DNA from: Promethearchaeota archaeon Loki_b32
Lineage (GTDB): Archaea; Asgardarchaeota; Lokiarchaeia; Sigyniarchaeales; SOKP01
Assembly: GCA_005223125.1 (NCBI GenBank)
Contig: NJBH01000035.1
Coordinates: 1-39,631, forward strand
Direction of reading: 5' to 3'
Length of the DNA stretch: 39,631 nt
Shown here: one piece after another, positions 32,570-39,195 of the stretch
Layout: the number at the start of each line of letters is the position of its first letter
Numbering within the stretch: position 1 is the first letter of the stretch
Translations under genes and position numbers: made by a program
The notes under the pieces: generated by a model
Seen by the model: the letters and a program-made list of their open reading frames with translations, nothing else
What the model was told of the DNA's origin: nothing
Databases searched by the model: none

Positions 32570-35008
32570 TTAAGTTTCTTGTTCACATTTCCCTATTGCT
32601 ACTACGAAATCTTTTTCATATAATTTGATAACTCGAACTCCTTTTGCTTTTCGATGTGTTATTCTTATTGAATCCACTGGAACCCTTATTACTTGCCCTT
32701 GTTCTGTTCCAACTAATAAATCCATGTGTTTTGCTATTTTTATTGCTATCACTTCATCATTTTTTGCTTTATTTAATGTGATATTCCTTACACCTTTAGC
32801 GGACCTACCAGTTTTACGATATTCTTTAACGTAAGTTCTTTGACCATACCCATTTTGAGTGAGTGTTAATATTATCTCATCATTAGATACAAGGAGACTA
32901 TCAATTACTTCATCATTTTCTCTTAGTTCTGCTCCTTTTACTCCCATAGAAGTACGGCCTAATTCTCTTAATTCAGATTCATCAAATCTAACAGCATAGC
33001 CTAATTTAGTAGCTATAAAAATATCTTGGAGTTCATTGGAGAGTCTTTTAACACTTATTAATGCATCATCTGCCCTAATCCTTTGAGCTCTTACCCCAGT
33101 ACTTCTAAATTTTGAGAATAGTTTTAAAGGAGTTTTTTTAATAATCCCATTCTTTGTCGTCATAATAAGCATTTCATTAGTATTGAAGTTATTAATTGGT
33201 ATCATAGCTGATATATTTTCGCCTGATTGCAATGGTATAAAATTAATAATTGGTTTTCCTCGAGCAGTTCGTTTTTGTGGTGGAATATTAAAACATCTAA
33301 TCGAATAAACCCTCCCTTTTGAAGTAAATATTAAAATTGTATCATGAGTTGTACAAACAAATAAATCAGTAATAAAATCCTCTTCACGTATAGTCATACC
33401 TCTTTTCCCGCGACCGCCTCGTCTTTGAGCGTGGTATTCTTCCAAAGATATTCTTTTGATGTATTGATTTTTAGTAAAAATTACAATGGTGGTTTCTTTT
33501 TTGATTAAATCTATGTTTTCAATTTCTTTTATTTCATAGTGTTCAACCATTTTAATTTCAGTCTTTCTATCATCTCCGTACTTTTTGTTTAATTCGATTA
33601 AATCGTTTTTAATTATATCTAAACGAACCTGTTTTTCTTTCAGAATTTTATTATAATCTTCAATACTAGTATGTAATGATTTTTGTTCATCTACTAACTT
33701 TTGTTGTTCTAAATTGGTTAATCGAGATAGAGGCATACTTAAAATAGATTGAACTTGAATATCACTTAATTTATAAGTTACTTTTAACTTATTTTTAGCT
33801 TCTTTAGTGTCTTTCGAACTTTTGATTATATTCACTACATTATCAATATCATTTAACGCAATTAAAAGACCTTCAACTCTATGAAGTCGATCTTTTGCCT
33901 TTTTTTGGAGATATTCGGTTCTTTTTTGAATTATAACTAATCGATGTTCAATATATTCATTAATAATTTCTTTTAGATTGAGAATTTTTGGTTGCTTACC
34001 ATCATTAACCAGAACTAGATTAGTTATATTAAATGTTGTTAGAAGTCTAGTCCTTTTAAAGAGAATATTTTTTATTATAACAGGTTGAGCTTTTTTAGAT
34101 AAATCTAATACAATGCGCATTCCTTTTCTATCTGATTCATCACGCAAATCTCTAATATCCTTAATTACTCCATCTTTTATTAGTTTAGCGATAGATTCAA
34201 TTAAAGTTGTTTTATTAACTAAATAGGGAATTTCAGTAATGATTAAACTAGTTTTGTTTCCTTTTATTTCAGTTTCAATCCTACCACTATTATTAATAGT
34301 TCCATTCCCTGTATGATATGCATTGTAGATTCCATTTGTGTCAGTAATAATTCCTCCTGTTGGAAAATCAGGACCTTTTATGATTTCCATTAATTCGTCT
34401 ATGGAAATTTCAGAATCTTCTATAGTTGCGACAATCGCATTACAAACTTCTGTTAAATTATGTGGGGCCATGGATGTTGCCATTCCCACAGCAATCCCTT
34501 TAGTACCATTTAATAAAATATTCGGAAGTTTTGCTGGTAAACATAATGGTTCAGAGGTACTATTATCAAAATTCGGTTGAAACTCTACAGTCTCTTTATC
34601 AATATCTCCAATCAATTCATTTGAGATTTGAGATAATCTTGCTTCAGTATACCTATAGGCTGCGGGAGGATCTCCATCTATAGATCCGAAATTTCCCTGT
34701 GGATGGATTAAAGGATATCTTAATGAGAAATCTTGTCCCATTCTAACAAGTGCATTATAAACAGACATATCGCCGTGAGGATGATAGTTTCCTAATACTT
34801 GGCCTACAATTTTAGCACACTTGACGTGTGAACTATTCCAATTCCAATTACTTTCAGCCATAGCGTAAATAATACGTCTGTGAACGGGTTTCAGACCGTC
34901 CCTGACATCTGGAATGGCTCGTCCTACGACTACGCTCATAGCATAATCGATGTAGCTGCTTTGCATTTCATCTTTTAATAAAATCTCTTCTATTTGTTCT
35001 GAAGTCAA
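32570..35008 (-). CDS. gyrA: DNA gyrase subunit A
   Basis: RDGLKPVHRR, YHPHGD, catalytic AAYRYTE, GyrA-box QRRGGRG, CTD blade repeats; TTG start with GGTG upstream. Confidence 0.98.
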   Translation of the reverse strand: MTSEQIEEILLKDEMQSSYIDYAMSVVVGRAIPDVRDGLKPVHRRIIYAMAESNWNWNSSHVKCAKIVGQVLGNYHPHGDMSVYNALVRMGQDFSLRYPLIHPQGNFGSIDGDPPAAYRYTEARLSQISNELIGDIDKETVEFQPNFDNSTSEPLCLPAKLPNILLNGTKGIAVGMATSMAPHNLTEVCNAIVATIEDSEISIDELMEIIKGPDFPTGGIITDTNGIYNAYHTGNGTINNSGRIETEIKGNKTSLIITEIPYLVNKTTLIESIAKLIKDGVIKDIRDLRDESDRKGMRIVLDLSKKAQPVIIKNILFKRTRLLTTFNITNLVLVNDGKQPKILNLKEIINEYIEHRLVIIQKRTEYLQKKAKDRLHRVEGLLIALNDIDNVVNIIKSSKDTKEAKNKLKVTYKLSDIQVQSILSMPLSRLTNLEQQKLVDEQKSLHTSIEDYNKILKEKQVRLDIIKNDLIELNKKYGDDRKTEIKMVEHYEIKEIENIDLIKKETTIVIFTKNQYIKRISLEEYHAQRRGGRGKRGMTIREEDFITDLFVCTTHDTILIFTSKGRVYSIRCFNIPPQKRTARGKPIINFIPLQSGENISAMIPINNFNTNEMLIMTTKNGIIKKTPLKLFSKFRSTGVRAQRIRADDALISVKRLSNELQDIFIATKLGYAVRFDESELRELGRTSMGVKGAELRENDEVIDSLLVSNDEIILTLTQNGYGQRTYVKEYRKTGRSAKGVRNITLNKAKNDEVIAIKIAKHMDLLVGTEQGQVIRVPVDSIRITHRKAKGVRVIKLYEKDFVVAIGKCEQET

Positions 35009-35056: not shown

Positions 35057-37122
35057 TTAAATATCTAATGTTTTAACTTCATCAAAATTACTAATAATGA
35101 ACTTTTTACGGGCTTTTACTTCTTTACCCATTAATTTTGTAAAGATTAAATCATTTTCGAGATAGTTTTCATAAGTTACTTTTTTCAATCTTCTTGATTC
35201 TTTTTTCATTGTAGTATCATATAGTTCATCAGAGTTCATCTCCCCAAGGCCTTTATAGCGCTGAGTTTTGATAGAATCCAGATTCTTTAAATTGTATTTT
35301 TCTTTGATACTTTTAAGTAAGTTCTCTTTCTGATTATCTGAATAAACATATTCTTTTGTTTTTTTATAAGAAACTTTATATAAGGGAGGTACAGCAATAT
35401 ATAAGTGCCCCTCATCTATTATTGGACGTAAATACCTAAAAAAGAAAGTAAGTAATAAGGTTTCGATATGAAATCCATCAATGTCTGCGTCGCACATGAT
35501 TATGACTTTATGATATCGTAGTTTACTTAAATTGAAGTTTTCTTCGGTCTCTTCCCCATTCTCTTCTATTTCACCATTTGTTCCATTCATTTGACTGGAA
35601 TCTTGAAATCCAACTCCCAAAGCTTTTATAATAGCTTGAATTTCGTTGTTTTGTAATACTTTATCTATTCTAGCTTTTTCAACATTGAGAATTTTGCCTC
35701 TAATGGGAAGGATTGCTTGATAAGTTCTATCTCTACCTTGTTTAGCAGGGCCGCCTGCTGAATCACCTTCTACTATAAAAATCTCTACTTTTTCAGGATT
35801 ATTTGATGAACAATCGGCTAGTTTTCCTGGCATCCTAGCACTATCTAATACTGATTTTCTCCGAATTAATAATCTCGCTTTTTGAGCGGCTTCTCTCGCT
35901 ATTTTTGCATTAATAGTTTTTAATACAATCTTTTTAGCGGTCTGTGGATTCTCTTCTAGATATTGAGTTAACCTGTTTGTAACAATTTGGCTTATAATCT
36001 GTCTAATTTCAGGATTACCTAACTTAATTTTTGTCTGACTTTCAAATTGAGGATCAGGAAGTTTAACGGAGAGGACAGCTGATAACCCTTCTCTTGTATC
36101 AGCTCCACTTAAGACGTGTCCTTTATACTTTTTTTCCATATAATTTTCTACATATGAATTAAAAATTCTTGTTAGAGCAGATTTAAATCCAGTGAGATGT
36201 ACTCCGCCTTCAATAGTGTTGATCGTATTTGCATATGTTAAAATATTTGTTTGGTATCCTTGAGTATATTGCATTGAAAGGTCCAGAAAAACATCTGATC
36301 CATCCGCATCTTTACCTGAATCACTTATAAATATGATATCATTATGAAGCGGTTGCCTATCTTTATTCAAATACGAGACAAATTCTTTAATGCCACCCTC
36401 ATAGTGAAATTCTTCCTTTTCATCATTGAATTTATCATTAAGTTCAAACCTAGTATGAGGTGTAAGAAAGGCTAGTTCACGCATTCTATTACTAATGGTA
36501 TAGGCATTAAAAAGAGGTTCATTTGGTATGAATTCAAAAATCTCTTTATCTGGGTAAAAGTGTATCTTAGTATATGACTCCTTTGCGTTAGATTCTACTA
36601 CTGTTGGCTCTGAAGCTTTTTTCCCCTTTGAAAATTTCTGTGTGTAGTTTTTCCCGTCTCGACAAATTTCTACATTCATCCAATCTGTTAAAGCATTAAC
36701 AACTGATAATCCAACACCATGTAAACCACCTGAAATTTTATAACTTTTATTGTCAAACTTACCACCAGAATGTAAATATTCCATAATTACTTCAACAGCA
36801 GGTTTCTTAAATTCTGGGTGTATATCAATTGGAATCCCGCGTCCATTATCGAATACCTGAACTGTGTTATCGTTATAAAGTGTAACTTTTATCTCATCTG
36901 CATAACCTCCCATAGCTTCGTCAACAGAATTATCCAAAACTTCGAAAATAAGGTGGTGAAGCCCTTTCTTCCCTTGATCCCCAATATACATTGCTGGGCG
37001 TCGACGCTAACGACTCAACGCGAATCGCGTATATTATTCAAGATTTACTATAATGAGTTTACGCCTTCGAGCCCTTTTAATACCTGAATATCCTCTGCAT
37101 CATACACATTCCTATCAGCCAT
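35057..37122 (-). CDS. gyrB: DNA gyrase subunit B, split into exon 1 (37122-37060) and exon 2 (37006-35057); 670 aa when joined
   Basis: Exon 1 encodes MADRNVYDAEDIQVLKGLEGV; exon 2 encodes RRRPAMYIG, EVLDNSVDE, GGLHGVG, EGDSA, PIRGK, DADIDG, RYKGLGEM. Confidence 0.95.
37007..37059 (-). other. 53-nt BHB-type intron in the gyrB coding sequence
   Basis: Helix GGCG/CGTT, bulges TA^A and AG^C, inner stem ACTCA/TGAGT, outer stem TCGA/TCGA; removal restores the frame and the conserved motif. Confidence 0.88.
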
Positions 37123-37501
37123 AAGATCCAAACCAAAAATTTTTGTAAAAGCAAATTTATCAAATCTAAAATGAATTTGTGTGATAATTTACAAAATTAC
37201 TAAGTAACTAGTGGTAATGAAAACATTTAAATGTATCTGCACTTTTTTAACGTTCAAAAGACCGACTTCTCTTTAAAAATACACCCAGCGCTAATGTCCT
37301 TTAATTAAAGAGTAATATCAATTGAATTGAGCTAAAGATTAAGAGTTCTCTACATAGAAAGCCCTAATTTTTAACTAAAAAATTTATACATAAAAACAAA
37401 AGATTACTAATTCTCTTGAATCTCCTCAACTAATATAGACAAAATCATTATTGTACTACACTAAACAAGTAGACAAGCAAGAATAGAACAATATGAGTTG
37501 T

Positions 37502-37837
37502 TCAGTAGCTTTCTTTCCTTAATTTTCTCAAAGAAGGTATAACTCCTTTCTTTAAACAATCAGTACAATACCAACACTTATGCCGCGGAATGTAGATTCT
37601 GTCTCCGTCTAACTTAGAGCATACACTACACACTAAAATTGAATCACGATAATTTTGACGGAATTGTTCAAGCTTTCGAAGAAGTGATAGTTGCTCATTT
37701 CCCTCCGCACCTAACCACAGTGCTTTAAGAGCTGCCTCCTGATCATAAAAAGTGTTCATTAGAACTTTCCTTAAATTAAGTCTTACATTTCTAAGTCTCG
37801 AGTCTTTAATTCTAATAATTCTTTGTCTTCTTAGCAT
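37502..37837 (-). CDS. Small basic protein with a putative Zn-binding domain
   Basis: CSVC...WYCTDC; 111 aa; Arg-rich N-terminus. Confidence 0.7.
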   Translation of the reverse strand: MLRRQRIIRIKDSRLRNVRLNLRKVLMNTFYDQEAALKALWLGAEGNEQLSLLRKLEQFRQNYRDSILVCSVCSKLDGDRIYIPRHKCWYCTDCLKKGVIPSLRKLRKESY

Positions 37838-37872: not shown

Positions 37873-39195
37873 TTATGGATTAGGATTACCAAGGAAATTC
37901 GTAATTTGAACTTGCGAGGAGACTAAACCAAGCTTACTCAGAATGGTATTTGGCAATTTTGGTATTGTATTATATTTTTGAATCCAACTATGTATCATAC
38001 CTCTTATTCCTAATTCAATAGTTCTAGCGGCGACATTTGATCCAAAGACTCTCTCAATAACATCAGGATAAAAATCTAAAAGAAATCTACCCACTCCTTC
38101 TTTCTTTATAAAATTTCGTCTATCTATAACTTCCGCCCATTGTTCCCTCCAAGTATCTGGATAAGAATTCTTATAATAATCTGGACAAGAATCACTGCTC
38201 CAATCAAGCATTTGATCTATTAGCGTATTAATTAATTTAGCATCTAAATTTTCCAAGTAAGGATGCAAACCTTTTAAAACAAGGACAATCCTATTGGGAT
38301 CAATAGATTTTTTATCGTTCTTAAAAATATGATGACGTTCAAACTTGAATCTATCTCTAAGAGAAATTTTGAAGGATATAGAATCAATTTTTTCTAACGA
38401 TCCTATACCAATACCTAAATCCCGAAGTAATAAAGCAATAATATGAAAATCAATCACATCTGGGTTCAACCAATCTTGATTATATTCCTTTTTTGAAGCT
38501 GTGACTTCACGTCTACTCAAATATTCACGAATTGCACTTGAAGCACGACGATAATTTTCTCCTGTAAACTCTTTTCTAAGAGTACCAATTTGGTAAAAAT
38601 TACCCTTAAATTCACCAATTAGACTAGTAAGAGTCCTCCAACTCATAGGACTAGCAGCTCTAGCAAATAAAAATCCAAAATGTCCACCAAGTCGTTCAGC
38701 GAACTCTTTGTGGGATAATGGTCTATTATTCTCTTTTGAAAATGCAATATACAGCTCTGAACACAAGTCATATTCAGGAGCAAAATACGAAGCACTACGA
38801 CGGATATAACTGGATCTAGCATGTATATATTTTCTTTCAAATGGATTACCGAAAATGAATGATTTAACTATCTTTTTGATACTTTCTTTTAATCTTTGTA
38901 CACTAAACTCATTAGCTTCGCTAATACCAAGTTGCCTTAGTTTACTAACAGTAATTTTCTCATTGAGATAAAGTAATTCAAATAATTTATAAAGATTAAT
39001 ATACTCATGCCCAGATGCAGAGAAAACTCCAACTCTACTATTTTTATTATAAAAAATCTTAGTAAGCAAATTTCCGCTAAATCCTCTTCGATTGCCCGTA
39101 TCCTTGTAGCGTGGAAATTCCGACAAAAAGACCTTCTGCAACCAACTCCCTAGGGAGTCTCTGATTGGAGTTCTTGTAGTTGAAACACCAGACAA
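37873..39195 (-). CDS. Hypothetical protein with a possible HNH/His-Me finger nuclease motif
   Basis: 440-aa ORF with TTG start; FERHHIF-x8-PNRIVLV-x3-LH pattern. Confidence 0.55.
   Translation of the reverse strand: MSGVSTTRTPIRDSLGSWLQKVFLSEFPRYKDTGNRRGFSGNLLTKIFYNKNSRVGVFSASGHEYINLYKLFELLYLNEKITVSKLRQLGISEANEFSVQRLKESIKKIVKSFIFGNPFERKYIHARSSYIRRSASYFAPEYDLCSELYIAFSKENNRPLSHKEFAERLGGHFGFLFARAASPMSWRTLTSLIGEFKGNFYQIGTLRKEFTGENYRRASSAIREYLSRREVTASKKEYNQDWLNPDVIDFHIIALLLRDLGIGIGSLEKIDSISFKISLRDRFKFERHHIFKNDKKSIDPNRIVLVLKGLHPYLENLDAKLINTLIDQMLDWSSDSCPDYYKNSYPDTWREQWAEVIDRRNFIKKEGVGRFLLDFYPDVIERVFGSNVAARTIELGIRGMIHSWIQKYNTIPKLPNTILSKLGLVSSQVQITNFLGNPNP

Follow-up and report, generated by a model that had tools for sequence, protein, structure and literature searches.

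The window analysed here, a 39,631-nucleotide stretch of DNA from Promethearchaeota archaeon Loki_b32 (contig NJBH01000035.1), carries a gyrase locus in which the gyrB reading frame is interrupted near its 5' end by 53 nucleotides. Is this insert a tRNA-type intron with bulge-helix-bulge (BHB) ends that is removed from the mRNA, as a sequence-only reading had proposed, or does it reflect recoding, a broken gene or a faulty assembly? The locus is organized as follows.

37060-37122, minus strand: gyrB exon 1, 21 codons from the ATG at 37122, encoding the N-terminal arm and ending in ...GLEGV
37007-37059, minus strand: gyrB insert, a putative BHB-type intron of 53 nt, phase 0, length modulo 3 equal to 2
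35057-37006, minus strand: gyrB exon 2, 649 codons plus stop, starting with RRRPAMYIG and comprising the HATPase_c, gyrase B, Toprim and C-terminal domains
32570-35008, minus strand: gyrA, intact, 812 aa, 48 nt downstream of gyrB

The unspliced gyrB frame ends after 24 codons, as had been read earlier, at a TAG (37050-37048) located four codons into the insert. When each bulge is cut behind its second base, exactly 53 nt are removed and the LEGV-RRRPAMYIG junction of the original proposal is restored; the joined exons encode a 670-aa GyrB with the motif GLEGV-RRRPAMYIG and no further lesion in the ORF. The two gyrase genes are probably carried on one transcript. No second gyrB was detected by blastn in the 95.5% complete genome, nor was a second copy of the intron with its flanks by covariance model or blastn, and a search of Rfam gave no match to the intron at E-values up to 1. 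A group I or group II self-splicing intron is ruled out, as the insert is too short for a ribozyme core and Rfam is blank. The idea that an intact gyrB elsewhere and relaxed selection here might explain the insert is not borne out either: gyrB is single, gyrA is intact and exon 1 is constrained (see below).

The elements of the predicted BHB structure are distributed over the insert and its exonic borders, the caret marking the cut within each bulge.

37062-37065, minus strand: central helix, 5' strand, exonic GGCG
37059-37061, minus strand: 5' three-nt bulge, TA^A, predicted cut 37060/37059 from known EndA geometry
37054-37058, minus strand: inner stem, 5' strand, ACTCA, pairing with 37017-37013
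37031-37053, minus strand: AT-rich arm with a premature stop at 37050-37048, folded as a hairpin in most relatives
37018-37030, minus strand: GC-rich hairpin, conserved, restricted to the 52/53-nt form, CGC/GCG core invariant in 16/16
37013-37017 and 37009-37012, minus strand: inner stem 3' strand TGAGT and central helix 3' strand CGTT, from the consensus fold
37006-37008, minus strand: 3' three-nt bulge, AG^C, predicted cut 37007/37006

The geometry claimed by the sequence-only reading (a 4-bp helix with two G.U pairs, 3-nt bulges, a 5-bp inner stem and an outer stem after a mismatch) is present in full, and the internal hairpin it mentioned is located at 37030-37018. In the Loki_b32 copy, the central helix pairs GGCG (37065-62) with CGTT (37012-09), including the two G.U pairs. 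The outer stem, TCGA/TCGA, follows an A.G mismatch and is extended by GGGC/GCCC; because the outer exon helix begins with a mismatch, an EndA of relaxed specificity would be needed. The BHB fold of this copy lies 2.3 kcal/mol above the predicted minimum (fold z = -1.35), and pairing probabilities in the central helix are 1-2% in the predicted ensemble. Moreover, BHB-shaped motifs arise by chance about 20-40 times per intron length in the genome, in true and false registers alike. Since the motif is common by chance and the Loki_b32 copy folds weakly, the case rests on comparison.

Relatives of Loki_b32 are labelled Promethearchaeota, in line with the Asgard host suspected earlier. Among 135 genomes of the family, 113 had a match to the GyrB N-terminus and were scored. 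The same codon boundary is interrupted in 23 of the 113, spread over three genera (12/43 in the Loki_b32 genus, 6/36 and 5/9 in two sister genera), and three metagenome contigs also carry an insert at this site, giving 26 distinct inserts with lengths of 30, 31, 33, 52 or 53 nt. Every one of the 26 contains an early stop, and in every one the GyrB motif is restored at the BHB register, with 4/4 pairs in the central helix of 23 inserts and 3/4 pairs in the remaining three. Placement by protein motif alone allows two to three registers, and the BHB register is the sole one to pair. The BHB match rate for random placement is about 0.2%, versus 26/26 at the frame-restoring boundaries of these homologous inserts. 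About 90 of the 113 scored family genomes are without the intron, the closest gyrB relatives among them, and none of the 13 scored genomes of the sister family is interrupted at the site. A long form carrying a nuclease gene was not found at the gyrB site among the 113 scored of the 135 family genomes searched. Several genomes of the genus that are more than 90% complete gave no gyrB match to the queries used; gyrase may have been lost in some species of the genus, or gyrB may be unassembled. Two genomes titled Odinarchaeota and Hermodarchaeota, L045 (identical in sequence to L256) and L048, classify into the Promethearchaeota family, and their titles are probably mislabelled.

Such a distribution is difficult to obtain from an assembly artefact, or from chimeric assemblies behind the mosaic described below. 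All genomes compared are metagenome assemblies and no listed DNA-run contig spans the intron, but the 26 inserts differ from one another, come from independent assemblies including one closed chromosome, and the mosaic recurs in several species pairs, which makes an artefact exceedingly improbable.

The long form was examined for evidence of a conserved structure. Unguided RNAalifold prediction on 16 long-form homologues recovered the central helix, the bulge, the inner stem and the GC hairpin. Paired cells amount to 98% in the central helix and 97.5% in the inner stem, versus about 40% in slid controls, and the covariation score exceeds 500 of 500 shuffles and all slid controls, both figures being inflated by relatedness. 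Compensatory changes comprise G.U to G-C replacements and, in 5 of the 16 homologues, a C-G to T-A double change in the inner stem, so that the alignment of gyrB 5' ends suggested by the sequence-only reading yielded double changes in the stems as well as the pattern of presence and absence. Relatives with G-C pairs in the central helix fold straight into the BHB. The Gly codon of the central helix is GGC or GGT in 22/22 carriers versus 14/37 intron-less genes, which are not independent observations. The 30- and 33-nt gyrB introns keep an AT-rich hairpin and have no GC hairpin, and the AT-rich arm of Loki_b32 (37031-37053) resembles the loop of these short introns in the sister genera. An origin of the 53-nt form as a 30-nt GC-hairpin core with an added AT arm was rejected because the short forms have the AT-rich hairpin and not the GC one. 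A box C/D guide inside the intron was also considered and rejected, the box D-like CTGA not being conserved.

In 22 intron carriers, exon 1 shows a pN of 0.056 versus a pS of 0.72, indicative of purifying selection, and the corresponding values in intron-less genes are 0.095 and 0.76. Exon 1 is equally constrained with or without the intron, and is therefore translated into a working protein. A broken gyrB, or a restart at the internal ATG at 36991 with the insert as a neutral passenger, is thus very unlikely. The ORF from this ATG does encode 644 aa and retains all Pfam domains, the genome encodes topoisomerase VI subunit A, so gyrase could be dispensable, and dN/dS of gyrB versus its nearest relatives is 0.32-0.39 on short branches. 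However, this ATG is replaced by a Leu codon in two carriers, the full-length carriers show no other lesion, and the protein would lose the N-terminal arm, which is kept in solved GyrB structures and is required for ATPase dimerisation. This is in line with the earlier expectation that a restart at 36991 should not give a normal enzyme.

Translational recoding would offer another route to a full-length protein, by bypass of the T4 gene 60 type, programmed frameshift or stop readthrough. T4 gene 60, which encodes a subunit of a type II topoisomerase and has a gap of 50 nt, is close to gyrB in both gap size and gene class, and the stop a few codons into the insert, before or within the hairpin, would suit such a mechanism. 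Against it, matching take-off and landing codons are present in 0 of the 26 inserts, insert lengths fall in all three frames, and in 11 of 16 53-nt copies the exon-2 frame is closed by stops within the insert, in several of these copies directly before exon 2. Lengths of 0, 1 and 2 modulo 3, stops in both frames and the missing matched codons therefore effectively exclude frameshift, readthrough and bypass, and recoding is extremely unlikely.

Removal at the RNA level is left as the explanation, and the genome encodes enzymes that could perform it: two EndA genes (PF01974; contigs C18 and C2), one of which has, by inspection, the catalytic Tyr/His/Lys residues, and a single RtcB gene. A hetero-oligomeric EndA has been linked to relaxed motifs and to cbf5 splicing (PMC2738675), and the two-subunit gene content suggests that the Loki_b32 EndA is likewise relaxed in specificity. 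RNA runs (two, plus a doubtful one; about 10% of words) gave contigs that carry at the site the codons of intron-less relatives, end loose at 36965-36991 without the 53-nt joint and all derive from intron-less relatives. Of the earlier proposal that gyrase depends on EndA/RtcB mRNA splicing, the need for removal at the RNA level and the presence of EndA alpha and beta and RtcB hold; the gyrB message almost certainly needs splicing, and splicing itself we strongly infer. We put the probability that gyrB mRNA contains a real archaeal endonuclease-type (BHB) intron at roughly 0.92. The gyrB transcript would fold into a bulge-helix-bulge, the two-subunit EndA would cut after the second base of each bulge, and RtcB would ligate the exons, giving full-length GyrB from the spliced message. 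Translation of an unspliced message would terminate four codons past the end of exon 1, yielding a peptide of 24 residues.

The intron does not follow the ancestry of the gene that hosts it. A 5' block was delimited as follows, its ends being approximate.

36960-37210, minus strand: 5' block with leader, exon 1, intron and about 45 nt of exon 2, differing in ancestry from the gene body

Intron presence requires 16 changes on the tree of the gyrB body, against a shuffled mean of 18, and is not clustered; on the tree of the 5' block it requires 8 changes, a value that none of 500 shuffles reached, and is clustered. From about 45 nt into exon 2, the Loki_b32 gyrB body is 92-97% identical to that of the intron-less G003, whereas the leader is only 54% identical to G003 and 79-87% identical to five of six compared carriers (70% to the sixth). 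The same mosaic was observed for G006 versus G009 and for G017 versus G011. The nearest neighbour has the same intron state in 52 of 59 rows by 5' block and in 33 of 59 by body. AU tests reject congruence in both directions (p = 1e-44 and 3e-5), also for the upstream part alone, with groups picked after the trees were seen, a short 5' block and non-independent kin. Contigs from both the DNA and the RNA runs follow the gyrB body as far as 36965-36991 and there diverge into intron-less 5' ends, at the border of the block. In the DNA run, coverage of the gyrB body contig far exceeds that of the leader contig, which hints weakly at the coexistence of intron-bearing and intron-less alleles in one sample.

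The conflict between block and body ancestry seems to indicate lateral exchange that involves no nuclease encoded by the intron. The Loki_b32 gyrB body is placed, with good branch support, among five relatives that lack the intron, and gain by lateral replacement would therefore be the simpler reading; the intron-less block may instead have spread. The intron may thus travel between species via recombination of a block of about 250 nt around the splice site, with gain as its presumed direction; a nuclease supplied in trans and directed at the site lacking the intron is one guess at the driver.

We also searched for introns in other genes. A marker search revealed stops in an EF-2 paralogue, and further candidates came from a census that made no use of the motif and compared Loki_b32 (G000) with 72% of one relative's closed chromosome. 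The candidates are listed below by genome and contig.

G000 C3 75804-75833, plus strand: 30-nt BHB intron in the P-loop of the EF-2 paralogue; BHB cuts restore the protein exactly
G000 C66 7883-7912, plus strand: 30-31-nt gene-breaking insert with BHB-like ends (census/extension)
G000 C32 33892-33921, minus strand: 30-31-nt gene-breaking insert with BHB-like ends (census/extension)
G000 C32 11030-11060, plus strand: 30-31-nt gene-breaking insert with BHB-like ends (census/extension)
G000 C4 82075-82105, minus strand: 30-31-nt gene-breaking insert with BHB-like ends (census/extension)
G000 C57 28521-28550, minus strand: 30-31-nt gene-breaking insert with BHB-like ends (census/extension)
G000 C63 17590-17619, plus strand: 30-31-nt gene-breaking insert with BHB-like ends (census/extension)
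G000 C64 72108-72137, minus strand: 30-31-nt gene-breaking insert with BHB-like ends (census/extension)
G006 C1 1505072-1505101, plus strand: 30-nt BHB-like insert with stop, in an apparent cis-prenyltransferase catalytic motif

A different 30-nt intron, located after QMTDSD, is present in the EF-2 paralogue of six relatives (L082, L087-L091), and BHB cuts again restore the protein exactly. One EF-2 paralogue pair shows an identity dip over about 90 nt, comparable to that in gyrB; the EF-2 species tree is poorly resolved. The census revealed 11 gene-breaking inserts in Loki_b32, 7 of which are 30-31 nt long with BHB-like ends (3 strict, 4 relaxed), and found strict BHB ends in 0 of 52 harmless in-frame indels. 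An end-extension pass over about 1600 orthologous ORFs added one further insert. The genome scan for frame-breaking inserts with BHB ends that the sequence-only reading had advised thus yielded about eight other protein genes. By motif, the C66 product resembles CTP synthase and the C63 product a small GTPase. Introns common to both compared genomes are missed, and the total of about nine, with gyrB counted, is therefore a minimum. G006 has far fewer private introns than Loki_b32. The 30-nt in-frame cases contain a stop in 7 of 7, one of them from a relative (shuffle probability 0.015, a modest value that is partly selected for); the stop would block lengthened proteins from unspliced messages. 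A reference-free BHB scan of the genome showed no clear excess over false registers and no more than a slight rise at 30-31 nt; therefore the motif alone proves nothing, and the introns are few, not hundreds.

The gyrB intron would accordingly belong to a set of mini-introns, about nine or more in this genome, that are tolerated in protein genes at conserved motifs. At slightly better than even odds, we favor a wider reading, in which the family hosts protein-spliced mRNA introns of about 30 nt, with about ten or more in each genome of some species. These would be placed in highly conserved motifs, usually contain a stop, and spread between species through gene conversion of short tracts while encoding no nuclease themselves. 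This would amount to routine mRNA splicing of invading mini-introns.

A dedicated regulatory switch for supercoiling, in which condition-tuned splicing sets the gyrase level in the manner of HAC1/XBP1, was also part of the sequence-only reading. It would add to the intron reading and not replace it, and we consider it rather unlikely. The early stop in 26/26 inserts, the invariant GC hairpin of the 52/53-nt form and the competing fold in the Loki_b32 copy would allow it; the leader moves with the intron, so an allele could bring its own regulation; and a negative-regulator role has been proposed for the cbf5 intron (PMC2738675). However, the intron is missing in about 90 of 113 family genomes and in 13/13 scored sister-family genomes, lengths range from 30 to 53 nt, the 30- and 33-nt forms do without the GC hairpin, which may merely aid folding, and similar inserts occur in unrelated housekeeping genes of Loki_b32. 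Because most relatives have no intron and about eight other genes have 30-31-nt BHB-like inserts, little speaks for a gyrase-specific switch, and the pattern is more readily explained by introns that are tolerated and spread than by a dedicated regulator.

In HAC1/XBP1 splicing, a protein endonuclease and an RtcB-type ligase remove a short intron and alter the reading outcome, Ire1 cutting two separate hairpin loops under stress signalling. The gyrB intron shares the short length and the predicted pairing of a protein endonuclease with an RtcB-type ligase, but both of its splice sites are placed in a single helix, within bulges on opposite strands. Homing typically co-converts the flanks of the inserted element. 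The gyrB intron resembles a homing rRNA-type intron in its patchy spread and co-converted flanks, with a direction set by parsimony only, and differs from it in having 30-53 nt and no nuclease gene. Mobile archaeal rRNA introns have BHB ends, EndA splicing and a patchy spread (PMC2738675), which the gyrB intron shares, its EndA splicing being predicted.

The closest known system is the cbf5 pre-mRNA intron of Desulfurococcales and Sulfolobales, of 16-44 bp, for which splicing was shown experimentally (Yokobori 2009, PMC2738675). Both are short BHB-type introns in a conserved coding motif, with a hetero-oligomeric EndA, no nuclease gene and a patchy distribution (PMC2738675). The cbf5 intron differs in gene, phylum and experimentally proven splicing, and has been attributed to a single gain followed by losses, with no transfer apparent (PMC2738675), whereas the gyrB intron block conflicts with the gene tree. 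The gyrB case further differs from cbf5 in that several genes per genome are affected and in having a long form with an extra hairpin. The BHB intron in the 5' UTR of HVO_1309 from Haloferax volcanii is likewise an mRNA substrate of the archaeal splicing endonuclease, but lies in an untranslated leader and breaks no reading frame (PMC7714728, PMC10485636). Asgard tRNA introns show repeated gains at BHB-compatible sites and a two-subunit EndA, as here; the preprint describing them treats tRNA introns only, mRNA introns being absent from its main text, and gives their arrival route as unknown and splicing as not yet shown in an Asgard cell (bioRxiv 10.64898/2026.10.13.758758). In Loki_b32, the tRNA genes detected by ARAGORN number only 15, and several of them contain introns of about 30 nt; many tRNAs are probably hidden by multiple introns.

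In the literature searched, archaeal mRNA splicing comprises cbf5, the only confirmed coding-region intron, and the HVO_1309 leader (PMC2738675, PMC7714728, PMC10485636). No gyrB or Asgard mRNA intron was found in this literature, which covered few subscription journals, and introns go unmentioned in a survey of archaeal gyrase (PMC9348778). Every feature of an archaeal EndA-type intron that can be tested from sequence is found in the gyrB insert, which would combine cbf5-type chemistry with an Asgard host, several introns per genome and apparent lateral exchange. With a second family of coding-region introns, several per genome, splicing of mRNA by the tRNA machinery would become routine in relatives of eukaryotes, and the gyrB intron would offer protein-catalysed mRNA splicing of the HAC1/XBP1 kind a precedent in nature. 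It would also mean that current annotation truncates core genes in these genomes, and pairs of genes that are almost identical but differ in intron presence would allow direct study of its gain and loss.

Two genes lie upstream of gyrB in the window.

37873-39195, minus strand: 440-aa protein with a conserved HNH-like motif
37502-37837, minus strand: 111-aa Cys-rich protein

Pfam, PHROGs, Atlas and a homologue search gave nothing usable on the family of these proteins. The HNH-like gene was considered as a mobiliser of the intron and rejected, as it was not found in most carriers and elsewhere is located beside other genes. The two-gene cassette looks like a mobile free-standing endonuclease cassette. 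It has matches in 13 of 54 genomes of the genus, mostly after an apparent rps11, and a degraded second copy is present on contig C36.
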